DNA of 64,000 nt, taken from assembly GCA_013239625.1 (NCBI GenBank), contig MU053561.1:374826-438825 (forward strand). The letters are read 5' to 3'. The translations under genes were made by a program, and so were the position numbers. Below are positions 37,176 through 64,000 of the stretch, piece by piece. How positions within the stretch are numbered: position 1 is the stretch's first letter; each line of letters begins with the position of its first letter. A model generated the notes under the pieces. The model was not told where the DNA came from. It ran no database searches and saw nothing but the letters and a program-made list of their open reading frames with translations. This stretch comes from Lama guanicoe (Eukaryota).

Positions 37176-38574
37176 TTAATGTATACATAAATCAGTTATT
37201 AATAAGAAAGAAGACATTTAGTAACCATGCAAAATTTTGTCAAATAGTACCACTGTTTTTGAAATACAAATTATTTGAACTGGGAAAGCAACTAAAGTTT
37301 TTAAGTAGAGAAACTCTCATCTAAATACTTACATCACAGCAGAAAGACTGAGTCAATAGCCCAAGCATTTTATTCAAGAAATTAGACCAAAAAACCACAA
37401 ACTACATCCAAAGAAATAAAACATAAGCATAATCAAGACAAGCAGAAATGAATGAACTAACTGAAAGAAGGTAATAAAGACAGTTAAATTAAATAAAATT
37501 ATAAAGAAGGCAAATGAACAAGTATTGGGGAAGTAAAAGTAGAATGTTTTGGCAGATACAATAGACAAAAGTCATGAACATAAAACAAATTTATTCTAAT
37601 ATGTTCGGAAACTTTGAAAGAACAGATAGCGTCTTTCATAAACCTTCCAGAGAATCAACAAGAGAGAAAACACTCTCCAACTCAACACATACATCTAATA
37701 TAACTTGGACAAAAAAACCCCCTAGGATAATACAAGTTAGGAAAATTATGGATCTACCTACTAGCAGAGAGACAAAAATTGTAAACCAATGACTACCTAA
37801 CTAAAACTAGCAATGAATTCATAATGATAAATGTAAACCCATCATGACTAATGATTTTTTTTTCTTCAGGAAAGAAAGAACGGTTAACACTAGTAAATCA
37901 ATTACTAGATGTCACCACCTTAAAAAGACCCATACAATCATTTCAATAGACTCAACAAAATATTTGGTAAAATTAAATCTTCATGATAAAAATTATGAAA
38001 TATAACAGCAAATTAGAAATAGAGAGAAAATTCCTAAAATTAAAAAAGGGTATCTACCACAATCTATAGCGAACATCATACTTAATGATAAACAAGTAAT
38101 TTGTATCCTTTACTTTTTAAAATTTCCATATATATTATTTATTTTTGTATCATTAAATCTTTGAGTGATCTAAACAAGACCCCCTGAATCTGAAAAGTAA
38201 AATTAGTCAAAATCTAATTTCCTACTGATAGGTCAGGTTCTACCTCCAGTGACAGGTTCTTGACACTGTCCACCTGTCTTTCACCTTAGCCAAGACTTCT
38301 TATTATTTACCTTGTCCCAGCTTATCATTCTGGAGTTATTCTTTCCTCCATAGGTGTTGTATAAAAGCCTTGAATCTGTTAATTTTATACTATCAATTCA
38401 TATGAACTTGCCTGTTACTTTGCCTTAAACCTTGACTTCGTGTTATGTATCTCACTCTTTCTTTCCACTTGTGCAGGTTTCTTGGTCATTTTTTACTGGA
38501 CTCTGGAGAAGAATGAGTGTGGCAATGCTCTTCTTTGTAAATAGTATTGTTTTAAAATAGGTGTTTATTGATTG

Positions 38575-42964: not shown

Positions 42965-43222
42965 TTTTGAATTTGGCAAAAGGAGGTTGTGGTCACTTCA
43001 GTGTGAACTTTTCTAGGAAATGCATAGGAGACACATGCCAGAGGGCTGTGACATGAATGGCAGATGAGGAAGAAAGATCACAGATCTAGACCACATCTTC
43101 AAGAAGTTGGGTGTGAAACAGAGAAAAGAAACAGGAAAGTCGCTGGAGGGTTCTATGTGGTAGAAAGAGGGTTTGTTAGAATGAAAGGGTCCTGGCCATT
43201 CTCAAGTGCTGTTAGGAAAACT
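42965..43222 (-). repeat. Left arm of imperfect inverted repeat (partner 44194-44449)
   Basis: Reverse-complement alignment; homologous ORFs MRKKDHRSRPHLQEVGCE (+) and MRKEDHRSRSHLQEAGCE (-). Confidence 0.93.
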
Positions 43223-44100
43223 CCCAGCAGATATCCCTGCTCAGCCTCCAAGAGAGGATAGGGGATCCCTTCAAAGGGATCCTCCTCAAGGATCAGCAAA
43301 GGAGGAGGCCTGTGCACTGTGGAGATGACCCGGTTGGCAGGCAGGGGAAGCTGTGAGTGTAGTGAGTAGACAGTCAGGGAGGGCAGGTCTGAAGTCTCAG
43401 TTTTCCTGTAAAGTCAGGGGCTGAGGTGAGGGCGTGGAAAGAGTGAGAGAGATGAAGGGGAGAACTCAGGAGAGAGCTGACTAGGGACAAATGGAAGCAT
43501 CACCAAGTGTGCTGAGCTCCTAGTTCAGGTTGGAAACCAGAAATGACAGTTTCCCCCAGTCTGTAAATCTGGTAGATTTTCTCAAGCACCCAGCAGCCTA
43601 AACTGGGGAGGGTAGTTGGAATCTATCTTTTGTATCCATTTGATTTTATCGTTTTCAAATCTATACCATTTTCTTTAGGCCACTGGAGGATTTCTTGATG
43701 AAAAACTCCTAATTCATCATCTAATTCATCAACTCCTATTGCTACAATATTGTCTGTGGGCTAAACTCTGTAGCATCTGTTTGATAACACAAAGCCTTGT
43801 GGAAATAGCCTGCTTTGACATAGTTCTTCTTATTTACAAAAATGATATTGTAAAAGGTGGGAATAACTCTTAGTTCCATAGAGTAGAAGATGCAAGCTTC
43901 CTTATCCTCAACCTGCATATGTCTCCAGTAAACTCCTCCCAACCCCCAGACAGAACTCTCAATGTTTCTCCACCTGTTGATACGCCATTAAAATACAGAA
44001 AGTATGTTGTATTTTAAAATAGCATATACTATTCATGTATTTTTGACACTGCTATTTTCACAATATATTTACTGCTAATTTTACACAACATATTGTAAAT
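43200..44100 (-). repeat. Duplication block B, inverted relative to 61190-62098
   Basis: e.g. tgtctgtgggctaaactctgtagcatctgtttgataacac is the reverse complement of 61507-61546. Confidence 0.95.
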
Positions 44101-44449: not shown

Positions 44450-44859
44450 GCGTTTCTCCACTTTGCTCACCAGTTCATCCGTTGACCACGGGCGCTGCCC
44501 TGGGAGGCTGGGGAGGCAGAGCCTCCTCTGATTTTCTCACACTCATGCTCCTCCTTCCTTCCACTGTAAGCCAGCCCACCAGGAAACTGGGGATGGCTGG
44601 ATGACGTGGGCTCAGAGTGCTATTAAGCATCCGAGTCAACCGATGCAAACATCATGTGTGCCCGAGGGCCGCTAGAAAGAGAGTAAAAGGCACACGATAC
44701 ACTGAGCTTTTTATTTTTTTTTAAACAAGTTCTCTTTTGTTCCTCCCCTTCTTTATTCCGTCTGTTTTGCTCACGCCACTCTCTGCCCTTCTCCTTCCCT
44801 CCTGCAAAGAGCCTCGTTCTGCAAAGAGCTTTTCATTCTCTTCTCGCTCCTTCCCTGGA

Positions 44860-45330
44860 TCCTTCCACGTGCGCCTAACGGCCCCTCTCGGAAGAACTAC
44901 ATGCGTTGGACACGGGGGCGCGCACCTGTCGTTCGCCTGTTGTGAAAATCGGCTGCGCTGAGCCGGACCCAGCTCAGGCCAAGGCGGGCGCCCCCACACC
45001 CCGCGCTCGGGGAGCCCGGCGTCCCTGCAAGTCCGACCCGCAAGGCCACCGTTGCAGGGGCTGACTCGCCAGCGAACAGGCGATGCCATGAGGTCAGGGA
45101 GGCCCTTCCTCTCCCACGGCCGTTCGCTCCCGGTGCTGCTCCTGGCGCTGCTGCTGGCTGACTGTGTTGGCAAGGATCCAGTTTTCCACCCGGAGTGGGG
45201 CTTTGATTCCTATGAAGTCACCATCCCCAAGAAGCTGAGCTTCCGACGAGAGCAGCAGGGTGTGGCCAAGCACGTGTCCTACCTCCTGCAGGTAAAAGGC
45301 AAGAACCGCGTCCTCCACCTGTGGCCCAAG
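44860..45330 (+). promoter_or_regulatory. CpG-rich promoter/5' region of ADAM30 copy 1
   Basis: Dense CpG and high GC around the ATG compared with CpG-depleted flanks. Confidence 0.75.
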
Positions 45331-47241
45331 AGGTTTCTGTTAGCCCGAACTCTGCAGGTTTTCTCCTTCACGGAGCAGGGGCAGCTCTGGGAGGATCACC
45401 CTTATGTACCCAGCGACTGCAACTACATGGGCTTGGTTGAAGGAAATCAGGATTCCGAGGCTACTTTAAGCACATGCACGGGGGCGCTCCGAGGCATATT
45501 GCAAATCGATGCCAGGCATTATCAAATCGAGCCCCTCAGGGCTTCTTCCACGTTTGAACATGTGGTGTATCTCCTGAAGAAAGAGCAGGAATTTCCTAGT
45601 CACATCTGTGGCTTAAGTCATGACGACACAGTAAAGCAGATGGCCCAGCAGGAGAACGTGGCTAGGATAAGCGACCTCACTGAGTCTTACATGCACCAGA
45701 AGTACTTGGAATTAGCCCTGGTCTTCGATCACAGTAGGTATTTGTACCTGAACTCCAATCTTACTCTAGTCGTGAATGACGCCATTCTTCTGACTGCGAT
45801 CGCAGACTCTTACTTTCAAGATGTCCGTATGAGAATACATCTATTTGGTGTGGAAGTATGGACAGATGAAAACAAAATAAAAGTGACTTTTTCAAAGTTA
45901 GACCAAGTTTTAGGCCAATTTATGGTATACAGAACAAGTGTACTAAATGCTCGATTTCCGGTAGATTGGGTACATCTATACATTAAACAAACTTACACAG
46001 ATTTTCTTGCACAATCCTGGGGAACTGTGTGTAGTACGTTTTATGCTGGATCTGCAAGTGTTTTTCTAGATATGAATGTCCTCACACCTGCCACTTGGAC
46101 TGCTCATGTATTGGGCCATAGTGTGGGAATGAACCATGATGCAGAATATTGCCAGTGTAAGGGTAGGCACAATTGCATCATGGGCACTGGACGAACTGGG
46201 TTTAGTAATTGTAGTTATGCTGAGTTTTTTGCACACGTCTATTCAGGAGCAAAGTGTCTAACTAATATCCCAGGACTAGGCTTTGTGGTTAAGAGATGTG
46301 GGAACAAAATTGTGGAAGAGGATGAGGAATGTGACTGCGGTTCAGGAGAGGACTGTAAAACAGACCAGTGTTGTCAACCAGATTGTAAATTCAAACAAGG
46401 TGCCAATTGTAGCACTGGACTTTGCTGTCATAACTGTCACTTTCGTCCATCTGGGTACATGTGTCGGAAGGAGGAAAATGAATGTGACCTCGCAGAGTAC
46501 TGCAGTGGGACCTCAGGACTCTGCCCAAGTGACACTTACAAGCAGGATGGAACCCCTTGCAAGTACGAAGCCCGTTGTGTCAAAAAGGGCTGCCAGGCCA
46601 GATATATGCAGTGCCAAAGCATTTTTGGACCTGATGCCAGGGAGGCTCCTCTTCAGTGCTATGATGTCCTTAATGTAATAGGTGACCAGTATGGGAACTG
46701 TGGTGCTTCAGGAGTCCGTGAATATCGGAAGTGTACCAGGAAAAATATATTATGTGGCAGGATACAGTGTATAAATGTCAACACCATCCCTGATATGCCA
46801 GATCATACTCTTCTAATTTCCACTCATCTGCAGGAGGAAAACCTCATGTGCTGGGGCATAGGCTACCATTTGTCCATGGTAGCTATGGGGATACCTGACC
46901 TGGGAGTGGTAAATGATGGGACCTCCTGTGGTACGGACAAGATATGTTTTAATAGAAATTGCGTGAATAGCTCAGTCCTGAAGTTTGACTGTTTGCCTGA
47001 CAAGTGCAACCACCGAGGCGTTTGCAACAATAAGAAAAACTGCCACTGCATGTATGGCTGGGCCCCTCCCTTCTGTGAGGAGGTAGGGTATGGAGGAAGC
47101 ATTGACAGTGGGCCACCGGGACCTCTAAAACAGGGGGTGCCCACCTCAATTCAGGTCGTGTCCCTTTCGTTAGTACGCCTTATTTTGTTAATTATCTCAG
47201 TGATTGTTGTGTTTTTCAGGAAAATCTTAGGAAACGTATAA
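45088..47241 (+). CDS. ADAM30: ADAM30-like protein, copy 1 (intronless, 717 aa): signal peptide, prodomain, metalloprotease-like domain with HVxxH, disintegrin, Cys-rich, EGF, TM; cytoplasmic tail truncated
   Basis: Single ORF with full ADAM architecture (CGNKIVEEDEECDCG, ECDLAEYC, GYGGSIDSGP); position directly 3' of NOTCH2 on the same strand matches known ADAM30 synteny. Confidence 0.93.
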   Translation: MRSGRPFLSHGRSLPVLLLALLLADCVGKDPVFHPEWGFDSYEVTIPKKLSFRREQQGVAKHVSYLLQVKGKNRVLHLWPKRFLLARTLQVFSFTEQGQLWEDHPYVPSDCNYMGLVEGNQDSEATLSTCTGALRGILQIDARHYQIEPLRASSTFEHVVYLLKKEQEFPSHICGLSHDDTVKQMAQQENVARISDLTESYMHQKYLELALVFDHSRYLYLNSNLTLVVNDAILLTAIADSYFQDVRMRIHLFGVEVWTDENKIKVTFSKLDQVLGQFMVYRTSVLNARFPVDWVHLYIKQTYTDFLAQSWGTVCSTFYAGSASVFLDMNVLTPATWTAHVLGHSVGMNHDAEYCQCKGRHNCIMGTGRTGFSNCSYAEFFAHVYSGAKCLTNIPGLGFVVKRCGNKIVEEDEECDCGSGEDCKTDQCCQPDCKFKQGANCSTGLCCHNCHFRPSGYMCRKEENECDLAEYCSGTSGLCPSDTYKQDGTPCKYEARCVKKGCQARYMQCQSIFGPDAREAPLQCYDVLNVIGDQYGNCGASGVREYRKCTRKNILCGRIQCINVNTIPDMPDHTLLISTHLQEENLMCWGIGYHLSMVAMGIPDLGVVNDGTSCGTDKICFNRNCVNSSVLKFDCLPDKCNHRGVCNNKKNCHCMYGWAPPFCEEVGYGGSIDSGPPGPLKQGVPTSIQVVSLSLVRLILLIISVIVVFFRKILGNV

Positions 47242-47447
47242 ACCCAAAGAGAAAGAAACACCACGAATTAACACTGGAGTAGAATAATTCAAGGCAAAAA
47301 ATGTCAAGAAACCAAAAAATAATCAGGCAATGCACAGTCACTCTGTAACCCAGGGTCATAAACTGAATGAGGTTCTCATTTATCCTAACAGCTCTTCCTT
47401 CTTCCCTCAATTCTTTAATTGAATTTTCTTTGAGGTTTTGATCAGCA

Positions 47448-47453
47448 AATAAA
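47448..47453 (+). terminator. Polyadenylation signal of ADAM30 copy 1
   Basis: AATAAA ~200 nt after the stop with downstream GU/U-rich sequence. Confidence 0.7.
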
Positions 47454-48469
47454 AAGTATTCTTGGTTTGGAAACAAATTGTTGCATTTTTGTTTCCTACT
47501 TCACTTGCCCCCTAGTTTGTGATCAAGTTCTGGATATCCTTAAAAAAAAAATGCCCCGATGGCTTTCTGAACCCTAAAGTTGTGAGTGTCACAGAAGTAC
47601 AGTGGATTTCAGAGAAGAGTCCTGCCTGTCAGTTCCCAGCAAACAAAGCCATAGTCTGCCTTTGCCTCTGCCTCCCTCAGCATCATCAGTGAAGTCACCT
47701 GTGCCATTGCCCCATGCTGAGCCATAAATGGTGACTACCACATTTTACATTCAGAAAGCGGTAGTTGACAAGGGTGTCCCCAGTTAAGGACATCCCCCTG
47801 TTATAGTCACTGCATGTTTCACTGTAGCTCCGTATACGTGTGGTCTCTGACTCAGTGTTTGGGGTGACCTCAGTTGGGTTAAGGACTCTAGTCTACCATA
47901 ACTTGTGCACTACACCACAGTCTACCATTGATGACAAGACCTGGCAGTGTCCTGGGGTCCAGGCTCTTAACAGAATACCATGCTTTGGGTTTCTGCTTGC
48001 TAAAACAATCTTCTATGAACATGTGCTGGGGGACATCTGGCCCTTGGTTTGCCACACCCCTAACTAAAGCAGAGGAGAGTGAGGAACGCCTTTCTTCCCA
48101 GGTACACCCATGTCTGCCCCCAAATATTCTCCCCTCTTTGCCCGGTGCTTTGGCTGGGAGGAGAGGAGGACTGAGTGCCCCCTTCAGAGGAGCATGTGCC
48201 CACGTCTTTACCAATGAGGGTCTCATCATCCCAGACTTGTGTCAGCCCCCAGCGTTTTCAGGTTTATTCTGGCCTGAGCCCTCCTGCAGTTCCCTAGCCT
48301 TCCCCAGGGCTGCTCCTTCCGCAGGCAGCACTGCAGGACCACTGTACCCCACCGCACTCTCCACTTTTCTTAGCCACACAGTCTTCTAACTGAAGAGGTG
48401 GTGGGAGGCTCATGATAAAGAGTGGTGCCCTTAGACTGTTCGGGGACAGTTCTTACTATAGATGCAATA

Positions 48470-48660
48470 CTGATAATGGTGGCTACCATTTACTGAACAG
48501 TCACTGTGTGCTGGGCAAGGTTCTAAGTGCTTCACATGTTTTAACGTGCATACCCCTGAGAATAACTCTGTGAGGTAGGTGTTATCATTTTCCTGTTTTC
48601 CGAAAAAGAAATTGAGGACAATGAGGTTAAATAACCTGCTCAAGATTACATAATTTATGA
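48470..48660 (-). mobile_element. MIR SINE remnant
   Basis: catttactgaac...ctgtgtgctgggca...tgaggtaggtgttatcat...gaggttaaataacctgctcaagattaca. Confidence 0.75.
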
Positions 48661-48764
48661 TTAATGACATTATTCAGTGTAGCTTTCTGTGCATATTAGG
48701 AAATTAAATTTGGGGAGGAGGATTTATTTTAAAAATTAAGGGTACTTACAGATTATAAATATTT

Positions 48765-51700
48765 TTAAAATTTTAATTGTGATAAAATATTCTAATATAA
48801 TTTTATATATTTAAAGTGTACAGCTTGATAATTTGACAGACATACATTGTGGAATGACGACCAAAAACAATTAACACATCCATCACCTCACATAGTTAAA
48901 TTTTTCAGGAGGTGAGGATGCTTAGAAGAAATCCTCAGCAAAATTTCAGGTATACAATACTGTATTGTTAACTACATTTACCATGCTTTACATTAGATCT
49001 TCAAAACGTATTTAATTATAATGGAAAGTTTGTACCCTTTGACTTACATCTACTCATTTTCCCCTCACCACAGCCCTTCACAACCACCATTCTATTCTCT
49101 GTTTCTATGAATTTGTCCCTTTAATAGAACTTTCACATGTAAGCGATACCATGTAGTATTTGTGTATCCTTGTGTGACTTTTTCCTTAGCATAATGCCCT
49201 CTGGATTCAAGCTTGTTTTTTCAAATGGCAGGATTTTTTATGGCTAAATTGTATTCCAGTGTGTGTGTGTGTATTTTATTCATTCATACTTTAAATGACA
49301 TCTAGGCAGTTTCCAAGTCTTGGTAATTGTAGATAATGCTGCAATAAATGTGAGAGTGCAGATATCTTGGAGGTAATAACTTAACTTTCTTTGGATGTAT
49401 AACCAAGAGCGGGATTGCTAGATCATAAGGTAGGCCTATTTTTAATTTTTTGAGGAAACACCATAGCATTTTCCATAGTGGCTGTACCCTTTGCATTCCC
49501 ATCAGCAGTGTTAAAGTGTTCCTTTTTTTTTTTTTTTACTACTTAGCAATGTTTGTTTTCTCTTATTTTTTTGATATAGCATTTCTGTCAGATATGAGGT
49601 GATATCACATTGTGGTTTTGGTCTGCATTTCCCTGATGATTAGTGGTAATGAATGCCTTTTCATACAATTAGTGGCCGTTTGAATGTCCTCTTTAGGAAA
49701 ATACCTGTTCAGGTCATTTACCCAGTTTTAATTGGATTATTTGCTTCTTTGCTGTTGACTTGTAAAAATAGTTCATATATTTTGGATATTAACCCCTTAT
49801 CAGATACATTGTTTGCAAACATTTTCTCCTACTGTGTAAGTTGCCCTTTCAATTTATTGTTTCCTTTGCTGTGCAGATTTTTAGTTTTGTGCAATCCCAC
49901 CTCTTTATTTTAGCTTTTGTTGCCTGTGCTTCTGGTCGGCCTTATCCAAGAAATCATTGCCAAGGCCAGTGTCAAGGATCTTTTCCCTGTGTTTTCTTTT
50001 AGGAGTTTTACACTTCCAGGATTTATATTTTTAAGAATATAGTATAGTAGTGTTAGACACATTCACATTGTTATGAAACCAATCTCTGGAACTCTTTACA
50101 TCTTGCAAAACTGAACCACTATTCCCATTAAATAGAAACTCAACCCTTTTCCCTGTGGCTGTGAAACCACTATTCTACTTTAAGTCTCTATGACTATATG
50201 TCTCTGTTTAAGTACCTCATCTAAGTGGAATCCTATAGTAATTGTTTGTGACTGGCTTATTTCACTTCGCATAAAGTCTTCATGATTCATCCATGTTGTA
50301 GCATGTCAGAATTTCCCTCCACTTTAAGGCTGAATTATATTTTATTGTATGTATATACCACATTTTATTGATCTATTCATTCCTTGGTGGACCCTTGAGT
50401 TGCTTCTATCTTTTTCCTATTGTGAGTAATGTTTGTTGTGAATATGGGTGTACAAAAAAATCTGGTTGTTTCCCGGCTCATATCCCTTAGGGTAAATACT
50501 CAGATTTGCAATTTCTAGGTCATATGGTAATTCTATTTTTAATTTTTTGAAGCCACCATTTTGTTTGCCATAGCAATTGCCTCCTTTCACATTCATACAA
50601 GCAGCTCCCAAAGATTCCAATTTCTCTATATTCTTGCCAACACTTGTTATTTTCTGGTCTTGGATAATAGCCATCTTAATGGATGGAAGATGCTATCCAT
50701 TGGTGTATTGATTTGCATTCCCCTAGTGATTGCTGGTGTTGAGCATATTCTCATGGGCCAGTTGGTCATTTGCATATTTCCTTTGGAAAACTTTCTGTTC
50801 AAGTCCATTGCCCATTTTTAAATCCAGTTGTTTTTGGTTTTGTTTTTGTTGGTGTTGAGCTGTAGGTGTTCTTTCTTTATTACCATTCTTTACCTCGTAT
50901 CAGATACATGATTTGCAAACATTTTTCCCTACTCTGTAGGTTGCCTTTTTCCTCTGCTGACTGTGTTCTTGGTTTCATTTTGTTTGTTTAAAATTAAACT
51001 TGTATATATTTAAAGCGTACAATATGATGCTTTGATATACATGTAATAGTGAAGTGATTACTACAAACGAGCTAATGAAGAACTGTCTCCTCACATACTT
51101 ACCTTTTCTCTGTGTTCTGAGAGCACTGATATGTAGTCTCTTACAAATTTCCAGTACACAGTCCAGTATTATTTATAGTCATCATGCTGTACATTAGATC
51201 TCTAGGTCTTATTCAACCTATGTAACTGCAACTTTGTACCCTTGGACCAAAATCTCCCTGTCTCTCCCCCCGCCCCCCAGACTGGTAATCACTGTACTAC
51301 TCTCTTCTTCTATGAATTCTACTTTTTGAGATTCCATATACAAGTGAGATGATGCAGTGTTTTTTCTTTCTGTGTTTGGCTTATTTCACTTAGCATAATG
51401 TCTTCACAGGGTCACAGATGGCAGGGTCTTCCTTTTAAGGCTGAATATTTCATCGTATATGTGGATCAGTTTCTTTATCCCTTCATCTCTTAATGGATAT
51501 TTAGGTCGTTGCCTTATCTTGGGTATTAAAAATGCTGCAGTGAACTCGGGAGTGCATGTGTCTCATCAAGACACTGATTTAATTTCCTTTGCAATAAGTA
51601 CCCAGGAGTGGGATTGCTAAGTCAAACAGTAGATGTATTTTTAACTTTTTGAGAAACCTCCACACTGTATCCAAAATGTCTGTATCAATTTACATTCCCA

Positions 51701-52220
51701 GCAGTGTGCACGAATTCCCTTTTCTTGCCAGTATTTTGCCAGTACACGTTATCTTTTATCTTTCGTACAATGGTCATCTTATCCATTGTGTGAGGTGCTA
51801 TCTCGTTGTGGATTTTATTTTTATTTCTCTGATGATTAGTGATGCTGAACACCTTTTCGTATGCCTGTTGGCCATTTGTAAGTCTTCTCTGAAGAAATGT
51901 CTACTCACATCCTTACCCATTTTTAAATAGGGTCACTTGTCTGGGGTTTTTTGCTGCTGAGTTGTATATTACGTATTTTAGATATTAACACCTTATCAGA
52001 GGTGAAGTTAGAAAATATTTCCTACCAGCTTGTAGATTGCTTTTTTATTTTGTTCATCATTTCCTTTGCTTTGCAGAAGATTTTTAGCTTGATGTAGTTT
52101 CATGTGTTTATTTTTGCTTCTGTTGCCTGAGCTCTTGTTGCCATATCCAAAAAAATCACTGCCAAAACCAATAGTAAGGATCTTTTCTCCTATATTTTCT
52201 ACCAAGAGTGTTATGGTTTC
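48765..52220 (-). mobile_element. Cluster of three antisense LINE-1 3' fragments (~48765-50030, ~50035-50970, ~50985-52220)
   Basis: L1 3'UTR/ORF2 C-terminal text repeated three times; - strand ORFs such as VQPLWK...LPYDLAIPLL. Confidence 0.88.
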
Positions 52221-52222
52221 AA

Positions 52223-54091
52223 TTCCACGATATAAGTTCAGGAAACACAAATCAATGGTAAACAGGGATCTGAATGGTGAGTAGTTTTGTGCGAGAGGGA
52301 CCTTGACTGAGAAGAGGGCAAGAAAAATCTTTCTGGACACTGAAAATATCTTCACCTGGGTGGTGATTTCATGAATGTATTCATACTCAAAATTCCATGT
52401 AAAATTTACTTAAGATCTTCCAATTTTACTAACATAAGTTATATTTCAATAAAATGTATCTATAATACTGACAGATGTATAAAAACCTAATAGTATAAAA
52501 TTAAAATATACAGTTATACATAATTTTATGTTACAGAATTTAAAACATTAGTGTTTTATTATATTTGTTTCAGATAATTCGAAGATAATGCAGTAAGACT
52601 CTTTAACCATCTCTATTCCATTCCCCTCCCTTTCCTTCCTCCCTTTTTCCTTTTCCAGTTACTTGTTTCCATAAATTGAATCTGTGGAGATTATTTTATG
52701 CTTAAAAACTTTGTTATTTGCAATAGGTGATCCATGAAGCAAACACATTTTCAAATTCAGTGGTATGAAATGTGGGACTGCAGAAATGCAAAGTTAATTA
52801 AGTGAGCAAGGCGAAGCAGCTGTTGCCTAGCTGGGTAGGAGCTCTGGAGTCCAGTTGGAAAACCCGTACCTGTGGGGTCCTGGCTGCTCTTTGGCACCAC
52901 CTGGTGGCACCTGGCTGCCTCAGCATAAATATGTTGGGGTTGAGTCTGGGTTCTGTCATCAGACTGGGATTTGCAAGCTCTTCACTGGAAATCATCACCA
53001 GCTTCAACATGCCTATTTCAGATGAGAGAGACCAGCAAACACTGGGATGTAAGGACCCAGCTCCTGCCTCTGTTATGGAACTGGCTCATGTTCTCCATCT
53101 CTCTTTCCTTTCTCTCCACCATGACCCCTTTCATTCACTCCCAGAAAAGGTTTAAGAACAGTAATTTTCAGAGGATGCACACCAACCAGTAATCATGTTA
53201 TATCAGAATCTAGTTACTGTGGTTATTGCAGGGTTTTACATTTGAGAACCGGAAATGAGGAAGAGAAGGTGTGTTCATCTGAGGGTAACAAGACTACACA
53301 CCTGGACAACCCAAGAAAACTTGCTAAAAAGACTACCCTAAATCATTAGAAATTTAGTAAACAAAAGAATGGAAAATTTATCAACAAAATCCAATTTGGG
53401 GATGTAATTGAGGAGAAAAGCACATTTACATAGCAAAGATACACCCCCCCCAAAAGATAACACATGGGTAATCCAAAGAAACAACCTTTAAAATAATTAC
53501 TAAGTGCAAATGTTACCAAATATCCCCCACTCCTGACTTGTCATTGCTGCTTCTTTATCAAAAAGCTTTAGTTCTGCTCTACTCTTCCCACCTAGTAAAA
53601 ATCATGAATATCTGACCATGCCTGTAACTTTGATAAAATTCATTAAGATACTCAATTTTTTAACCTGCCTCAACATCATCAAACACAAGTACAAGTCCCA
53701 TAATAAGCCCTCCCTAACACTCACTTACTGAGACACCACATCTCCCCTTAGTGTGCAACGTTCCTTGCAGCAAACAGCATTGATAAATCCATCTTTGTTT
53801 GACTTACTGGGGTGCTCCTGGTGGTTTGACTGAGGGATGTCAACAGAGCCTGTGCTGACACTCGGAGAGAGGAAGGATCCCCCTGTAACACCTGTCATAC
53901 ACGCGGCCTGACTGTCACAATGACAGTCAATGAACTTTTCATAAAGATGGTACATATATGAAGCCATCATAAATCTTAGTGTAGCTTCCAGAATCATTAT
54001 CATACAGAGAGTTATCTCTGTACAGAGGACTATGAAATTAGAAACAAAAGTCAAAATCTAGCCAACACCACCGTACATGTGAAAAAAATTT
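52223..54091 (+). repeat. Segmental duplication block A, copy 2
   Basis: Same sequence as 35307-37175, offset ~16.9 kb. Confidence 0.95.
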
Positions 54092-54784
54092 GATCCAATG
54101 ATAAGGCAGAATAATACCACACTTGGAAGACAGCATTGCATTCCATACAAAAAACCAGAGATGTACTAGAAGAAAATTTTAACATGCACGTTATATAGAT
54201 ATTTTTTATGAGATAAGCAAGAAGAATGACACAAAAACCAGGAGCTAGAAGAGTTTAAAATGTCCTGTACAATAAGGACACTGTAAAAGTGAAGTGACAA
54301 ATAACAGATTGGCAGAATTGATTTGCAATATACAAGCAGCTCCATTAAGTTGAAAAACAAAGCAAAGTAATAGAAGAATGGGCAAAGGATATGAACAGGT
54401 GAATATAAACACATTTAATAATGTGTATCAGAAAGTTGCTAACAGAGTAAATCCTAAAATTTCTCATCACAAGGCAAAAAACATAATTATGGGTGGTGAT
54501 AGCTATTAACTGTACTTATTATGGTGATTATTTTGCAGCATACACATAATTAAACTATCAAGATGAGCACTTAACTAATACAATGTTATATATCAGTTTT
54601 ATCTGAATTTTAAAAATAATTTTAAAAAGTAGATTGGCTGAGTTACTATATATGTTCAACCTCACTAATAATCAGAGAATGCAGTTTACAATCTTGAGCT
54701 ATGTTCTTTTTCTAATGTAAGTCTAGATATAGGAGCTGGATATTAAACACTGCTGGAAAGTCTATAGAAATACAGGCTTTCTAT

Positions 54785-54985
54785 AGCTGTGCTGTCTAAC
54801 ATGGCAGCTAGTAACCAATAGTTAGTGGCTATTTAAGTTTAAATTATCCTAAAGTTAAATTAATTTGAAATTCAGTTGTTCACCACAATAGCCACGTTTC
54901 AAGTGTTCAGTAACTTCAGGTCATTAGTGTCTACAGTATTGGACTTTATTAGCATATCTATTATTACAAAAAGTTCTACTGAACA
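54785..54985. mobile_element. MER3-like hAT DNA transposon remnant
   Basis: ctgtgctgtctaacatgg...gccacgtttcaagtgttca...aaagttctactgaacag; family recalled from memory. Confidence 0.7.
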
Positions 54986-57900
54986 GACTAAAGACATAGG
55001 TGACATGGCAGATCAGAAAGCCCCAACACTCCTTCTCCCGCTATAGATGAACCTCTGGGAGGACTCTGGAAATCAGTTAAAGGACTTCTGCACCGCAGGT
55101 GAGCATGAAACAGACTGCATGGAAGTTGGATATGGAATCCGCATCACTATTCACTTTGTCTCCTCAGAGGTCTACTCCCCACAAAACTCTCACCTCCACC
55201 ACCACACATACACATATGATGCATCGTATTTGGAAGAAAACCCTCGACCTCCAACTTTTCTTGGGGTAGGAGGGAAAGGAGTTGAATGAAAGTCCAAATG
55301 AAATTAAAGGGCTGGTCTGAGGGACTATATCTATCTTGACTGTGTTTCAGTACTGACAGGAATGAGAATGACAGGTTTAAAGTCTCTGATGAAAAAGAGA
55401 AAAGCCATGCAACAGGGTGTGCAGCACCACAGGCAAAAACTACAATGGAGCCCCAGGATGGAGCCCCAGCATTGCAGACAGGCTGCAATACTGACAACAG
55501 TCACCAGTGGGAGCTCCTGAGTAGAGATTGGCAAATCTCTTCAAATAGCTTATACACACAAGCCCAGAAAGGATCCACACTGGGCACACCCACATGCAGA
55601 AAGGACTTCAGAGGACTCCAGAATCTAGCCTGGCTGTGCAGAGAAAATCAACCCTGTATGGAACCAGATAGCAATCTGGGAGAGTTAGCTGTTCAAAATC
55701 CAAAACAGAACAACAGAAGCAACATACACAAATGTACAGGCAACCCTGACATGTTTAAAGGAAGCAATTACATCTCTAAAGTGAATATAAAGAAATGGAG
55801 ACATAGGAATTGCCAGACAAACAACCCAAAATTACTGTTAAGAAGATATTCAATGAATTAACTGAGAACACAGACAGCCAGCTAAATAAAATCAGGAAAA
55901 TGATGCATAAACAAATGAGAATATCAAAAAAGAGAGAAACTATGAAGAAGAACCAAAAGGCAATTCTGGAAATAAAGAATACAATACCTGAATTGAAAAT
56001 TTCCCTGGAGGGACTTAATATCAGACTTAACCAGGAAGAAAGAAGAATCAATAAACTCAAAAACGAGAGAAATTTCATAATTAGTGAAACAGGAAGAAAA
56101 GGAATGAAAAAAAAAATGAAGAGAACCTAAGGGACTTACAGGATACCATAAATAAAACAATGAAAATCACAGAAGGAGAAAGCAGAGAGAATGGGGCAGA
56201 AGAGTTATTTGAAGAAATAATGGCCAAAATTTCCCCAAATCTGAGGAAAGAAATGGACATAAATATTCAAGAAGCTCAAAAACTATGATTAGGGATAAAT
56301 CCAAAGAGACCTACAGTCAGGCCATTTTAGACATCATCATAATCAAATAGTCAAAACTCAGAAATAAAAAGATAATCTTGAAAGCAGTAAGAAAAGTAAA
56401 TTTACATACAAGGGAGGTCCTATTAGATTGTCAGTAGATTTCTCAGTAATAATCTTGCAGGCTAGAAGAGAATGTGATGACCGATTCAAATTACTAAAAG
56501 AAAAAACTGCCAGCCAAGAATGCTATGTTCAGAAAAACTACCCTTCCAAAATAAGGAGAAGTCAAGAGTTTCCCACGTAAGCAAAGGATGAGGGATTTCC
56601 TCAACACTAGACCTATCCTACAAGAAGTGCTGAAAGGAGTACTCAAGTTGAAGTGAAAGGCTGATAAACAGCAACCAAAAAAACTCTATAAAATGTATAA
56701 TTCTCTAATAAAAGTAAAATATTTAGACAAATAAAGACTCCCATAGTATTGTCTTATAGATGAGTTACTAACTTATAAATCAAGTATAGATCTTTTTAGA
56801 AAGCTTAAAAACAATTATAAATCTATGTTAATGAATAAGCAATATTAAAAAAGGTAATTTGTGTCAATGACAACATAGTGGGAAGGGGATAGAGATGTAA
56901 AAGAGCAGGGCTTTTATATGTGATTGGAATTCTTATCAGCATAAAATAAATTGTTATAACTTTAAGTTGTCTTAGTAATTGCAATCATAACCACAAAGAA
57001 AGCTTCTATAGAATACATACAAAGGGAAATGAGCAGGGAGTCGAAACACGTCACCACAAAAATCAATGAAACAGAGAAGGAGACAGCAAGATATAAAAAG
57101 AGGGACAAAAAGGCTAGAGGACACACAGAAAACTATTTTTAAAATGGCAACAGTAAGTTCTTCCTGGTTAGTAATTTCTTTAAATGTAAAGAGAGGAAGC
57201 ACACCAATTAAAAGACATAGACCAGATGAATAGAAGAAAAACCAAACAAGATTCAACTATATTTTGTCTATAAAAGACTCACTATGGATTTAAGAAGACA
57301 CATAAACTAAAAATTAAAGGGTGGAAACATATTTCCTGCTATGGGAACCTACAGAGAGAGAGGTGGCGCAGTTATATCACACAAAATAGACTTTAAGGCA
57401 AAAACTGTCACAAGAGACAAGAAAGAACACTATTAATGATAAAAGAGTCAATTTACCAAGAAAATGTAACAATTTAAAATATTTGTGCACCTAACATTAA
57501 AGCACCCAAATATATGACGCAAACATTGACAGGACTGAAGGCAGAAATAAGACAGCAACACAATAAAAGTAGGAGACTTCGACACCTCAGTCTCAGTTAT
57601 ATATATGCTAACAAATTGGATAACCAAAAAATGGATGAATTCCTAGAAACATACAACCTGTCAAGGATGAATCATGAAGAAATAAGAGATTAAGCAGGCC
57701 TACAACTAGTGGGGAAATTGAAGCAGTGATCAAAAGCCTGCCAACAATGGAAAGACCATTTCACTGGAGAATTCTGCCAAACATTTAAAGAATAATTGAA
57801 AACAATCCATCTCCAACTCTTCCAAGGAACTGAAGAGGAAAGGACTCTCCCAAACTCATTCTCTGAGGCCAGCATTACCCTGATACCAAAACCAAAACCC

Positions 57901-60642
57901 AGTAAAGAAAGAAAACTACAGATCGATCTCCCTGATGAATATTGATACAGAAATCTTAAACAAAACACTAGCAAGCTGAATTCAACAGCACATTAAAGGG
58001 GTCATAGTTCATGACCAAATGGGATTTATACCTGTAAGCAAGCACGGTTTGACATAATGAAAATCAATCAATGTAATATATCTCATTAACAAAATGAAGG
58101 ACAAAACACATATGATTCTCTCAATGGATGCAGAAAAAGCATTTGACAAAATTCAGTACCATTTCATGATTTAAAAAAAAAACCCTCACAGACTAGGAAG
58201 GGAAGGAAACTATCTCAGCATAATGAAAGTCATATATAAAAAGTTCGTAGTGAACATCATATTCAAAGGGAAAGCTTTTCTTTTAGTATCAGGAGCAAGT
58301 GGGCAAGAACATTCACTCTCACTACCACTGTTCAGCATAGTGCTAGAAGTTATAGCCAGTGCAATCAGACATGGAAAAGAAAAAAAAGGCATGTAAGCTG
58401 GAATAGAAGTATTGAAATAATCTGTTTGTACATGATATGGTCTCACATACAGAGAACCCTAAGGATTCCACCAAAAAAAAAAACCCACAAAAAACTTGTC
58501 AATTCAAGAAAGTTACAGACTACAGAATCAACAGTGAAAAATCAGAGTTGCTTCTATATATTAATAATAAACAATCTAAAATGGAAATTAAGAAAACGAT
58601 CTCATTTACCGTAGCATCAAAAAAGATAACCAAGGACGTAAAAGACTTACACACTGAAAACTACAAAACATTGCTGAAAGAAACCAAAGATGCTTCAAAT
58701 TAATGGAAAGGCTACCCATGATCATGGATTGGAAGACTTCATATTGTTAAAATGTAATAATTAGTAGTCATTATGACAGTTTAGAATTAGCGTAAAGATA
58801 AATATATTGATCAATGGAGTAGAATTGAGAACCCAGAGATAAACCCTTTCATATATGGCCAAATAATGTTCAACAAGAGTGTCAAGACTACACAATAAAG
58901 AACAAACAGTCTGTTTAACAAATGGCATAGGAAAAATTGGATATCCACATGCAAAAAAATAAATAAAGCTGGATCCTTACCATACACTTTACATGAAAAT
59001 AACTTAAAATGGACTAAAAACATATGTATAAGAACAAAACATATTATCTCCTAGAATAAAACACAGAGAAAATCTTCAGGACACTGAATTTACAGTATTT
59101 CCTGAATATGACACCAAAAGCACAGGTGTCAAAATAAAAATTATGTGAATGGGACTACGCCAAACTTTAAATCTTCTGTACACCAAAAGAAACGATCAAC
59201 AGCGCAACAGCGTGAAAAGGCAACCTACAGAATGGGAGAAAATAATTGCAAGTCATGTATCTGATAGAGGTTAATTTTCAGAATATATAAGAAAATTCTT
59301 CAACAACTAAGAACCAAATAATTCCGTTCAAAAACTGGCAAAGGACTTGGACACAGGCATATCTTATTTTATTGCATTTTGCTTTGCTGCACTTTGCAAT
59401 TATTGCATTCTTTACAAATTGCATGTTTGTGGCAACACTAGGTCAAGCAAGTCTCTCTGTGCCATTTTTCCAACAATATTTGTTTACTTTGTGTCTTTGG
59501 GTCAGATTTTGGTAACTCTCACAATATCTCAAACTTTCTATTATTATTATATTTGTTATTGTGATCTATGATATGTGGTCTTTGATGTTACTATTGCAAA
59601 AAATTCCTATTTCCTTAAGGTTCAGAAGATAGTTGGGATTCTTTAGCAATAAAGTATTTTTAAATGCATACATGTTCACTGGTTTTTTTAGACATAATGT
59701 TATTTCCCACTTAATAGACTACAATATCGTGTGAATATAATTTTTATATAAAAAATGTGTGACTTACTTTAATGCAAATTCACTATATTGGAGTGAAACC
59801 AAAAATTTTGTGTGATATACTTTATTGCAATACTCACCATATTGCAGTGGTCTGAAATCGAACCCGTAATATCGTCAAGTTATGCCTGTAGATATTTTCC
59901 AAAGGAGATATAGAAAAAATGGATCAACACATGAAATGATGATCAATACCATCATTAGAGAAATGCAAATCAAAACCACAAAGAAATACCTCTTTACACT
60001 AATCAGAATGGTCTTATCAAAAGAACAGTAAATAATAAGTGTTGGTAAGAATGTGGAGAAGTTGGAATCCTGTGATATGTTGGTGGGAAAGTCAAATGAC
60101 AGAGTCATTATGGAAAACAGTATGGAGGGTCCTCAGAAAGTTAAAAATAGAATTACATATGATCCAGCAATCCCACTTCAGGATATATACCCTAAAGAAC
60201 TCAAGGTAGGATCTCGAAGAGATAATTGCACATCCATTTTCATTGCAGCGTTATTCACTGTAGTCAAGAGGTGGAAGTAACCTAGATGTTCATCAGCAGA
60301 TGAATGACCAAAGCAAGTGTGGTATAGACATACATGGATCAGTATGTGTGCTTAAAAAGAAGGAAACCCTGTCAGAAGCTATAACAAAAATGAACCTTGA
60401 AGACATGCTAAGTGAAACAAGGTCGTCACAGAGAGGAAGTAGAAATGTAGTTTCTTCAAAGAGCAGGGGAGAAGGGGTAAAATTATTGTCTAATATGTAT
60501 AGAACTTCGGTGCTGCAAGATGAAAAAGTTCTATACAGATCTGTTGCACAAAAATGTTAGCGTGCTTACACTATGGAAATGTACGCTTTAAAATGGTTAA
60601 TGTGATAAATTTAATGTTATTTACTTTTTACCAAAAGTTTTT
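54986..60642 (+). mobile_element. Near full-length degenerate LINE-1 (5'UTR, ORF1 ~55780-56660, ORF2 ~57140-60300 with deletions and stops)
   Basis: ORF1-like coiled-coil ORF 55810-56130; endonuclease and RT remnants; degenerate TSD aaaagttcta(c/t)tg(a/g)aca at 54969-54985 and 60643-60659. Confidence 0.9.
59354..59888 (+). mobile_element. Tigger1-like internally deleted DNA transposon nested in L1 ORF2
   Basis: Terminal inverted repeats caggcata...tatgcctg; Tigger1-like end sequences; flanking L1 sequence rejoins across it. Confidence 0.85.
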
Positions 60643-60734
60643 AAAAGTTCTATTGGACAAGCAGCTTTGTACATAGTTTGCAAATCAATACAAGATTTTA
60701 AGAAATTTATTTGACTTTTCATTGATTTCCACTT

Positions 60735-60810
60735 GGAGGAGGTACTGGAGACTGAACCCCGACTTCTTGGGTGCTGAACATGCACTCTACCACATGAGCT
60801 ATACCCTCCC
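60735..60810 (-). mobile_element. tRNA-derived SINE, Vic-1-like
   Basis: Reverse complement gggagggtatagctcatgtggtagagtgcatg...ggttcagtctccagtacctcc is homologous to 2763-2840. Confidence 0.8.
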
Positions 60811-61189
60811 TACAGAGTTTATGGTGATTTTTAAAGAGCTCAGTCAATCTGAGTACTTGCTTTCTCTTTGGCCTAACAATTTCAATTCTAGGAACCCATC
60901 AGAAGAGGCAAAAAATATGTGTGTGTATACATGTATATACACGAATGTGTACACGTGTATATTTACATATAAATACATAAGTTCTTTAATACATATATAT
61001 GTATATGTATTGCCATAATATAAAATACTTGTCAAAAAGAAAAATGTAGAAATTTGAAGCAATACTATTGTATCGTCATCCATCCATAAAGGAAATAGTT
61101 AAATAAATGATTATGTGAATACTATAATCTGAATATAGTATCTGTTATGGGCAATAATCTACATCTGATATTAACAACGACCTAGAAAA

Positions 61190-62098
61190 TTATTTACAAT
61201 GTATTATGTACTGAAAAGTAGCAGTGTCAAAAGTATATGAACAGGATGTACTATTTTAAAATATGGCATACTTTCCATATTTTAATGGCATATGAACAGG
61301 TGGAGAAACATACATAAGAGCTCTTTCTGGGGGTTGGGAGGAGCTTACTGGAGACATATGCAGGTTAAGGATAAAGGAAGCTTGCATCTTCTACTCTATG
61401 GAACTAAGAGTTATTTCCATTTTTTATAATATATATTCACCTTTTACAATATCATTTTTGTAAATAAGAAGAACTATGTCAAAGCAGGCTATTTCCACAA
61501 GGCTTTGTGTTATCAAACAGATGCTACAGAGTTTAGCCCACAGACAATACTGTAGCAACAAGAGTTGATGAATTAGATGATGAATTAGGAGTTTTTCATC
61601 AAGAAATTCTCCAGTGGCCTAAAGAAAATGGTATAAATTTGAAAACGATGATAAAATCAAATGGATACAAAAGATAGATTCCAACTACCCTCCCCAGTTT
61701 AGGCTGCTGGGTGCTTGAGAAAATCTACCAGATTTACAGACTGGGGGAAACTGTCATTTCTGGTTTCCAACCTGAACTAGGAGCTCAGCACACTTGGTGA
61801 TGCTTCCATTTGTCCCTAGTCAGCTCTCTCCTGAGTTCTCCTCTTCATCTCCCTCACCCTTACCACGCCCTCACCTCAGCCCCTGACTTTACAGGAAAAC
61901 TGAGACTTCAGACCTGCCCTCCCTGACTGTCTACTCACTACACTCACAGCTTCCCCTGCCTGCCAACCGGGTCATCTCCACAGTGCACAGGCCTCCTGGT
62001 CTGCTTATCCCTGAGGGGGGCCCCTTTGAGGGGATCCTCTGTCCTCTCCCGGAGGCTGGGCAGGGCTGTCTGCTGGGGCTTTCCCACCAGTACATGAG
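61190..62098 (+). repeat. Duplication block B, copy upstream of the second ADAM30
   Basis: Reverse complement of 43200-44100, with a near-identical core and more diverged ends. Confidence 0.95.
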
Positions 62099-63469
62099 AC
62101 AGACACCTTAAAATTTCCACCTCCTGGGAAGAACTTCTCATATTTCTTCCCTTCACGAGAGTCAACTTCTTTTGCTATTTTCTCCTTCCCCGTGTGACTG
62201 GACCATGATACAGAAGCCAAAAACGTGAATATTCTTTTTGATTCTTACTTCTCTCCTGCTGGAAGAATCCATTCAATCGTTAAGTCCAGCAGAGTCTGCT
62301 TTATTCATATTTTTTGAAGATGTCCACTTGTGTCCTTCCCCAGAGGGTAACAGAGGTGACTGGTAAGGAGGCTCCAGGAGGGAAGTGCCTAAATGTGTGT
62401 GGCAATGGTGTCACCTAGCATCACCATCGAGTGCAAATACAGTTTCAGTCTCCTTGTGTGTGAACTATGGAAGATAATCATAGAGTTACCATCCTCTGCA
62501 AAATAGGGTTCTTGCGAAGACTTAATGGGCTGATTCACGCAGAGAGCCTGGAAGAGTGGCTGGCACACAGTAAGCCTTCCATAAACACTGAATTTTATGA
62601 GCTCCAATGCCATTATTTCTGGCCCACTGACAACATCGCTTGACTGGATTGTTACATGAAGTTAACTGGTCTCCCTGATTCAGGCCTGGTCCTTTTTAAA
62701 CCTTTCCCTGTAATGCAGACGTAATTAATTCCCTAAGAACATAATTGAAAATGTTCCTTTTGAGTCAAAAGTTCTCAACAAAATCATAAGACCCTGTAAT
62801 TTATGGATTCCACAGACAACTAGTTCTTTTATATTCTGAGCAGGGATCTTGGATGGAGCTTTGCAGTCTCCTCTCTCAGCCATCACTCATACTAGAAACA
62901 TATATAAACTCTTCACCTTGCTCTGAAAGCTCCTGGGTTTTGCTCTTTTCACGGATATTTTACTCTTTCTAGATTCTTCCACCACTGCACACCCACACCA
63001 GAAAATCACGCTGATCCCTGGCAACCCAAGGACACAGAGCAGAAAGAACCACCTGACCAAATGAAACTTTCCCTTGCCTGAAGCCAGGCGCTGCCCGGGG
63101 GGCGGGTGGGGATATGAGTCTGCACTGATTTTCAGTTCCGGCGCTACCCATGCCGGCTCCTGTGCGCCTTCCCTTTGCTGCAAGCACCGCAGCTGAAAAC
63201 GGAATGGTGGAATGGAAAGGTGGGCACAGTGGCCTATGAATCACCTGATTCAATCAATGAAAAACCATCAGGTGTGCCCGAGGGCCTCTAGAAACAGACT
63301 AAAGGGCACAAAATACAGCGAGTTTTTTTTTTTTAAACAAGTTCTCTTTTGTTCCTCCCCTTCTTTATTCCGTCTGTTTTGCTCACGCCACTCTCTGCCC
63401 TTCTCCTTCCCTCCTGCAAAGAGCCTCGTTCTGCAAAGAGCTTTTCATTCTCTTCTCGCTCCTTCCCTG

Positions 63470-63940
63470 GATCCTTCCACGTGCGCCTAACGGCCCCTCT
63501 CGGAAGAACTACATGCGTTGGACACGGGGGCGCGCACCTGTCGTTCGCCTGTTGTGAAAATCGGCTGCGCTGAGCCGGACCCAGCTCAGGCCAAGGCGGG
63601 CGCCCCCACACCCCGCGCTCGGGGAGCCCGGCGTCCCTGCAAGTCCGACCCGCAAGGCCACCGTTGCAGGGGCTGACTCGCCAGCGAACAGGCGATGCCA
63701 TGAGGTCAGGGAGGCCCTTCCTCTCCCACGGCCGTTCGCTCCCGGTGCTGCTCCTGGCGCTGCTGCTGGCTGACTGTGTTGGCAAGGATCCAGTTTTCCA
63801 CCCGGAGTGGGGCTTTGATTCCTATGAAGTCACCATCCCCAAGAAGCTGAGCTTCCGACGAGAGCAGCAGGGTGTGGCCAAGCACGTGTCCTACCTCCTG
63901 CAGGTAAAAGGCAAGAACCGCGTCCTCCACCTGTGGCCCA
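63470..63940 (+). promoter_or_regulatory. CpG-rich promoter/5' region of ADAM30 copy 2
   Basis: Identical to the copy-1 CpG-rich region. Confidence 0.75.
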
Positions 63941-64000
63941 AGAGGTTTCTGTTAGCCCGAACTCTGCAGGTTTTCTCCTTCACGGAGCAGGGGCAGCTCT
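63700..64000 (+). CDS. ADAM30: ADAM30-like protein, copy 2 (5' part only; runs off the window)
   Basis: MRSGRPFLSHGRSLPVLLLALLLADCVGKDPVFHPEWGFDSYEVTIPKK..., identical to 45088-45388. Confidence 0.9.
   Translation, partial: MRSGRPFLSHGRSLPVLLLALLLADCVGKDPVFHPEWGFDSYEVTIPKKLSFRREQQGVAKHVSYLLQVKGKNRVLHLWPKRFLLARTLQVFSFTEQGQL

Follow-up and report, generated by a model that had tools for sequence, protein, structure and literature searches.

The window analysed here is a stretch of 64,000 nucleotides (nt) from Lama guanicoe, corresponding to C1182:374826-438825 in an assembly of 2.05 Gb and 55,231 contigs, and it carries a tandem pair of ADAM30 genes on the forward strand. Copy 1 is an intronless open reading frame (ORF) that begins with ATG at 45088 and ends at 47241, with 717 codons plus stop and no interruption in the ORF list, and its exact protein is on record (P0002). 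Copy 2 starts at 63700 on the same strand, 18,612 bp from the first start, and is still open at the window end, where its first 100 codons (63700-64000) encode the same 100 residues as those of copy 1. Following copy 2 past the window end on the same contig, we obtained its complete ORF (C1182:438525-440678), which comprises 717 uninterrupted codons and ends at extended coordinate 65853. Self-BLAST of the window plus 30 kb of downstream sequence showed that the duplicated unit, made up of upstream region, ORF and 3' flank, spans only about 3.3 kb, with 44606-47940 matching 63220-66538 at 94.9% over 3,343 columns; the 5' part of the second segment (63220-64000) lies inside the window. A tandem repeat unit of 18.6 kb was ruled out, since just these ~3.3 kb match and the remaining spacer is unrelated except for repeat-like pairs. 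No third ADAM30-like locus that could have served as a donor was found in the source genome, in which the next matches are 41% identical and belong to other intronless ADAM clusters.

Both proteins exceed the curated Pfam cut-offs for the same set of domains in canonical order, located in copy 1 at residues 47-118 (propeptide), 205-395 (Reprolysin), 410-482 (Disintegrin) and 487-596 (ADAM_CR). The Cys-switch PSHICGLSHDD and the Met-turn RHNCIMGT are present in the two copies, and the top hydrophobic 19-residue window, which marks the transmembrane segment, begins at residue 690 (aa 690-708). The copy 1 protein terminates 8 residues past the FF of its ...IVVFF stretch and copy 2 finishes as ...FFRKILGNL, a very short tail in both cases, and an AATAAA signal lies ~207 nt 3' of each stop codon (47448-47453 for copy 1, extended coordinate 66058 for copy 2). 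The zinc motif of copy 2, HELGHSVGMNHD, is of the HELGH type and satisfies the full HEXXHXXGXXHD consensus with its Glu. In copy 1 the motif is HVLGHSVGMNHD, with HVLGHSVGMNH at residue 340, and it departs from HEXXH at the catalytic-base position, codon 341 (46108-46110), which is GTA (Val) in copy 1 versus GAA (Glu) in copy 2. On the basis of these motifs copy 2 is predicted to be proteolytically active, and copy 1, which keeps the three His and the Met-turn, is predicted to bind zinc with no cleavage owing to the Val. An earlier note on this window had proposed the two same-strand starts with this spacing, an intact 717-codon copy 1 with ectodomain and transmembrane segment and lacking the catalytic Glu, and a proximal upstream region, signal peptide and prodomain start common to both copies, all of which hold; it had also considered a dead or disrupted copy 2, which the complete ORF with HELGHSVGMNHD and an intact Met-turn shows not to be the case.

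Comparison of the two ORFs revealed a strict mosaic. They differ at 120 of 2,154 nt and 67 of 717 residues, with zero indels, and every difference falls inside one of three islands whose divergence ranges from 11 to 26%. Island A (45843-46111, aa 252-342) covers the metalloprotease core up to the zinc motif and holds 71 differences in 273 nt; island B (46567-46747, aa 494-556) covers the first part of the Pfam ADAM_CR match, with 38 in 189 nt; and island C (47139-47236, aa 684-717) comprises the transmembrane segment and the last residue, with 11 in 102 nt. Between the islands there are zero differences over coding runs of 755, 455 and 391 nt; when the differing sites were shuffled 10,000 times, the longest such run reached 249 nt, so that the identity of these runs is not due to chance. 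The first run continues upstream of the ORF to give an identical block of 1,129 nt (44714-45842 and 63326-64454), which includes the 374 nt upstream of the ATG (44714-45087, GC ~0.61), a putative proximal promoter and 5' untranslated region; within the window, these 374 nt and all 300 coding nt of copy 2 are identical to copy 1. Upstream of 44714 a similarity of ~80% persists for ~110 nt and then disappears, and over the 3' flank to 47940 the copies differ by a few percent.

The same partition is seen in the substitution rates. The synonymous divergence (dS) is 0 in the identical tracts and 0.40, 0.26 and 0.13 in islands A, B and C, the nonsynonymous divergence (dN) is 0.30 in A and 0.23 in B, and the dN/dS ratios are 0.74, 0.85 and 0.91 for A, B and C, with differences spread evenly across codon positions (25/24/22 in island A). 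The GC content at third codon positions (GC3) is 0.66, 0.41 and 0.55 in the homogenised tracts versus 0.25-0.41 in the islands, except for 0.50 in island C of copy 1; a higher GC3 in the homogenised tracts is the direction that GC-biased conversion predicts. Codon 341 lies at the 3' edge of island A, 42 nt past the preceding difference, which places the catalytic residue where conversion, or chimerism during assembly, can flip it.

Both types of ADAM30 are also found in Camelus RefSeq, where each has 717 residues as here. The C. bactrianus protein P0125 (XP_010967043.2, 'ADAM30-like') has HVLGH and copy-1-type islands, being 98% identical to copy 1 and sharing all its island residues but two, and copy-2-type islands with HELGH are carried by P0121 of C. 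ferus and C. bactrianus (XP_032344086.1/XP_010967055.2) and by P0124 of C. dromedarius (XP_010998201.3). In addition, the exact copy-1 protein (P0002) and a copy-2 protein (P0122) are each on record from a 77.9-Mb contig. Because orthologues of both types exist in Camelus, the pair and the Val of copy 1 are older than the split of the camelid genera and are not errors of this assembly; the duplication itself thus precedes that split. Copy 1 and P0125 differ at 13 residues, of which 7 fall in aa 1-251, none in island A and 2 in island B, giving between-genus changes of 7/251 for the prodomain block, 0/91 for island A and 2/63 for island B. All seven genus-specific residues in aa 1-251 are common to both paralogues within each genus. 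Over aa 30-200 the identity is 1.00 between paralogues versus 0.96 to the orthologue, and for the protease core it is 0.63 between paralogues versus 0.98-1.00 to the orthologue, so that in defined tracts paralogues are closer to each other than to their orthologues, as concerted evolution demands. The tract boundary is not identical in all animals: C. ferus copy 2 carries copy-1 residues at positions 253-255 and C. dromedarius does not. The C. bactrianus copy-2 record also exists in two versions, the older (P0126) with Val341 and Ser481 and the newer (P0121) with Glu341 and Ile481, and hence the annotated catalytic residue of a camel copy 2, at a conversion-tract edge, was altered between record versions.

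Concerted evolution further entails conflict between the trees of different tracts, together with identical runs longer than chance, and both were observed. Trees of the homogenised blocks group the sequences by species, joining the paralogues of the window species, those of Camelus and the two Bos paralogues (support 100). On the homogenised columns, a grouping of copy 1 with P0125 was rejected by the approximately unbiased test (p-AU 0.0055), as was a type-1 clade (p-AU 8.6e-77). In the island tree, copy 1 and P0125 instead join warthog and the Bos protein P0007 (80/79), and on the island columns the monophyly of the two Bos paralogues was rejected (p-AU 3.75e-5). The combination of old divergent islands and conflicting trees implies that the pair is old and not a young duplicate, with its identical stretches attributable to conversion. 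The earlier note had read the genes as a lineage-specific pair. Neither this proposal nor a recent duplication as the source of the identical 5' end can be sustained, given that Camelus has both types, that Bos has a comparable pair and that island dS reaches 0.26-0.40, and given that the tree conflict and the genus-specific residues shared by paralogues point to gene conversion as the source of the 5' identity.

In order to place the catalytic position in a wider frame, we scored it across mammalian ADAM30 sequences. Glu is present in all the primate (8/8), rodent and lagomorph (14/14) and carnivore (7/7) representatives. It is replaced in the five scorable non-camelid cetartiodactyl proteins (whale Ala, hippo Ser, warthog Ala, both Bos Val), in horse (Cys), in 13 of 20 bats, which have Asn, and in 3 of 4 eulipotyphlans. 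The Ovis model P0001 has no protease domain and was left out of the scoring; this 937-residue 'hypothetical protein' of Ovis aries contains three ADAM30 prodomain-like segments followed by disintegrin, Cys-rich and transmembrane regions, and probably arose by merging several sheep ADAM30 copies or fragments into a single gene model. Camelid copy 2 is the sole cetartiodactyl ADAM30 with Glu in this sample, and by a hand count retention of the Glu and reversion to it in copy 2 need about equal numbers of changes. The tail follows a similar distribution: from the column of residue 706 to the end there are 12 residues in both camelid copies, whale, hippo and Bos P0007, 6 in horse, 21-22 in warthog and Bos P0006, and at least 54 in full-length primate representatives. 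Judged from these alignments, ADAM30 of cetartiodactyls and horse usually lacks the Glu and has a short tail, and copy 2, with its Glu, is the exceptional member. The earlier note had described copy 1 as lacking the Glu and a tail, and these traits are not peculiar to it, since the former is the rule in cetartiodactyls and horse and the latter is found likewise in copy 2, whale, hippo and one Bos paralogue. This corrects an easy misreading of such loci, in which the Glu-less copy is in fact the conventional one in this mammal group and identical 5' ends do not denote a young duplicate.

Taking these results together, we assign a probability of roughly 80% to the locus being an old tandem ADAM30 pair that evolves in concert by gene conversion, with islands kept distinct and with copy 2 alone retaining or carrying the Glu. 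Under this reading, an ancient tandem duplication of an intronless ADAM30 would have left each copy with its own upstream region, 717-codon ORF and poly(A) signal. Repeated non-allelic conversion would then have homogenised three tracts, namely the upstream region with the signal peptide, the prodomain and the start of the protease domain; the end of the protease domain with the disintegrin domain; and the end of the Cys-rich domain with the EGF-like domain. Conversion would have spared three islands that are each conserved between genera (the protease core as far as the zinc motif, the beginning of the Cys-rich domain and the transmembrane segment), and by now these islands may be too divergent, or too strongly selected, to be overwritten. 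The mammalian neutral rate is about 1-2e-9 per site per year, and at this rate the island dS of 0.26-0.40 suggests an age of tens of millions of years. The duplication probably took place at the base of Cetartiodactyla, a placement for which the support is moderate. The pair would thus illustrate how tandem intronless reproductive genes share a promoter, a prodomain and adhesion domains through conversion and keep a protease core and part of the Cys-rich domain distinct.

Several observations weigh against this reading or parts of it, and they are best considered along with the explanations they would favour. If the pair arose instead by a younger duplication on the camelid stem, before the genera split and unrelated to the Bos pair, its islands would have been driven apart quickly by positive selection or by relaxed constraint on copy 2. 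In agreement with such a history, a camelid-only duplication is not rejected on the island columns (p-AU 0.179), the stem branch leading to the camelid copy-2 sequences is long (0.46), residues confined to the two camelid copies occur at 3 island positions, and the island dN/dS of 0.74-0.91, with differences even over codon positions, is compatible with positive selection as well as with constraint that was relaxed early on. The clade uniting camelid copy 2 with Bos P0006, whale and hippo also has low support (69/84). Nevertheless, that clade and the grouping of copy 1 with warthog and Bos P0007 are what the best tree gives, four shared-derived island residues back each type, and the Bos pair shows the same mosaic with its island monophyly rejected. 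The contrast between island dS and the zero values elsewhere likewise argues for age rather than selection, and we regard a camelid-stem origin as improbable, though likelier than the two alternatives that follow.

A second concern is the assembly itself. An unplaced contig of 1,129 bp (C52589) corresponds exactly to the first identical block, the maximal one, and stops at the first differences on both sides, which is typical of a collapsed repeat and makes it look like the leftover of such a node. It shows that the assembler handled the block as one sequence, and it also argues that the two copies of this animal are truly the same, or nearly so, over that block. Moreover, P0122 differs from copy 2 of this assembly at positions 385, 616, 618 and 655, and at all four the residue present here is that of copy 1, so the exact identity of the copies may be in part an assembly effect, with tracts 2 and 3 slightly over-homogenised, or these sites may reflect polymorphism. 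Together with the change from Val341 to Glu in the C. bactrianus copy-2 record, these points could be taken to mean that a single ADAM30 was written twice, or that the assembler copied its 5' end into a second locus. Such an artefact is hard to reconcile with loci that differ at 120 coding nt gathered in islands 11-26% divergent, with the annotation of both types across three Camelus species from other assemblies, with the records of both proteins from 77.9-Mb contigs, and with 14 DNA-type runs, from four organisms and six studies, that contain at least 0.90 of the sequence words of the copy 1 stretch. An artefact would reach no further than the exact match of the copies in tracts 2 and 3, and we give an artefact of the whole pair very little credence. 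The discrepancies do carry a warning for annotation, as short-read assemblies can blur such pairs and records or assemblies disagree at tract edges, including at the catalytic residue.

Copy 1 might also be regarded as a duplicate in decay or devoid of function, in effect a young pseudogene whose frame is still open, given that it lacks the catalytic Glu and that the island differences are even over codon positions. Its sequence speaks otherwise. The 717-codon frame is open in two genera, the islands of copy 1 have changed less between genera than the prodomain block, and the zinc-binding His, the Met-turn and the Cys-switch are retained. In its islands copy 1 is the more orthodox of the two, nearest to warthog, Bos P0007 and horse, and whale, hippo, warthog, Bos and horse yielded no ADAM30 other than Glu-less ones. 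By these marks copy 1 is not decaying, its islands being nearly unchanged between genera, and the idea of a pseudogene is even less credible than that of an artefact.

With respect to function, the points that weigh on the old, conversion-shaped pair are that the activity states of both copies are predicted from motifs only, and that five RNA runs (labelled as reproductive system or by organism) carry 0.35-0.47 of the sampled words of the copy 1 stretch, a fraction for which the identical tracts alone could suffice. These runs show that some ADAM30 transcript exists, from one or both copies. The identical 374 nt upstream of the two ORFs likely place both copies under common regulation. For the human protein, PMC4972530 describes a HEXXHXXGXXHD motif and a catalytic-site mutant that loses the effects on APP products and cathepsin D, and the reference list of that article cites a report of testis-specific ADAM30 expression. 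If both copies were expressed in testis, camelids would offer a natural pair of active and inactive ADAM30 with which to probe the role of protease activity.

The position of the Glu codon at the edge of a conversion-resistant island, beside a Glu-less neighbour with the same promoter and prodomain, can be cited for a bolder proposal, in which selection has held a protease and a pseudoprotease apart for tens of millions of years despite a steady flux of conversion, and in which the domain-wise mosaic, recurring elsewhere, is a general rule of ADAM30 diversification. We put this forward tentatively and judge it rather unlikely as a whole; if true, it would mean that a sperm-type ADAM diversifies its working surfaces and shares the remainder. 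The recurrence is at any rate visible in four pairs of paralogues with similar domain-wise ADAM30 mosaics, in Eptesicus (P0028/P0035), Chrysochloris (P0037/P0050), Vombatus (P0080/P0081) and Bos (P0006/P0007). Here the paralogues of one species resemble each other most in the prodomain and the disintegrin domain, and the protease core has its closer match in another species. Within the pair the prodomain is 0.90-0.98 identical, versus 0.79-0.89 for the nearest other species; for the protease core the within-pair value is 0.49-0.69, and in most of these pairs a higher one is reached with another species. This recurring mosaic across mammals may be the most interesting lead to come from the locus.

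The Bos pair is the closest parallel, with a disintegrin block 99% identical between the paralogues and a protease core of 53%, the core of P0007 being nearest to warthog and that of P0006 nearest to whale. It differs from the camelid pair in that both proteins have HVLGH and neither has the Glu, and in a prodomain identity of 90% instead of 100%. The Camelus pair departs from the one described here at the seven genus-specific residues of aa 1-251 and in the edge shift at 253-255 of C. ferus. Among named relatives, nearly all down to ~41% identity are called ADAM30 or ADAM30-like, and names such as ADAM20, ADAM21, ADAM9 or ADAM1a-like appear at 40% or below. The best named matches are all ADAM30. 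Human and other primate ADAM30 have the domain order and the HEXXHXXGXXHD motif of copy 2; the primate representatives differ in their length of 758-800 residues, with the long tail counted above. The human member is described as an active protease in PMC4972530. With regard to known structures, alignments of copy 1 to venom enzymes in the PDB end at aa 563-568. ADAM22 is a somatic, multi-exon gene. Its protein provides the closest solved structure (5y31/3g5c), with an ectodomain of metalloprotease-like, disintegrin, Cys-rich and EGF parts that aligns over aa 204-664 (E 1.6e-57), and differs in having no HEXXH at the motif position of the alignment.

Intronless (group I) testicular Adam genes, comprising Adam1a/1b, Adam4/20/21 and the testases, expanded by tandem duplication after retroposition, as stated in PMC4550289, and these clusters resemble the ADAM30 pair in being intronless and tandem. 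Homogenisation in a mosaic is not described in that text, from which the term 'gene conversion' is absent and in which 'ADAM30' was not found. Literature searches, mostly at the level of titles and abstracts, returned no paper on an ADAM30 pair, on ADAM30 gene conversion or on the Glu pattern; among the matches, one paper concerns the loss of genes in hystricognath rodents and another mentions ADAM30 just in passing. Both camelid genes are already annotated in Camelus RefSeq and the tandem expansion of intronless testicular Adam genes is already in print; the locus is a genuine feature of an ordinary kind, and it illustrates clearly how genes can evolve in concert around islands that resist conversion.

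Upstream of the pair, the window contains 3' exons of a Notch receptor gene (4894-30064) on the same strand as the uninterrupted ADAM30 ORFs, with EGF domains at ~4.9-5.3 and 14.8-15.2 kb, LNR domains at 19.1-19.6 kb and ankyrin domains at 25.7-26.1 kb. Its final open frame has 462 codons (28679-30064, forward strand), and the ADAM30 copies lie ~15 kb and ~34 kb downstream of its last exon. A Notch receptor gene thus adjoins the camelid pair, and in human NOTCH2 is the neighbour of ADAM30, which is present there as a single copy.

Some minor features of the region complete the description. Three further repeat pairs in the window are probably interspersed repeats: 35307-37176 versus 52222-54091 (92.5%, direct), 43200-44060 versus 62099-61212 (91.3%, inverted) and 42968-43221 versus 44449-44196 (86%, inverted). 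The inverted 889-bp pair sits 1-2 kb upstream of each ADAM30 copy. Identical antisense ORFs of 122 codons (44721-45089 and 63333-63701, reverse strand) lie over the GC-rich upstream region of each copy and are most likely a by-product of base composition. Elsewhere in the assembly, other intronless ADAM loci also occur in pairs with equal or nearly equal scores against the query, at C55228:34083822-34085930 and 34136448-34138556 (461.1/461.1 bits) and at C7688:1352623-1354629 and 1326265-1328271 (386.6/386.4 bits), which hints at more near-identical duplicates of testis ADAM genes, or at assembly duplicates.

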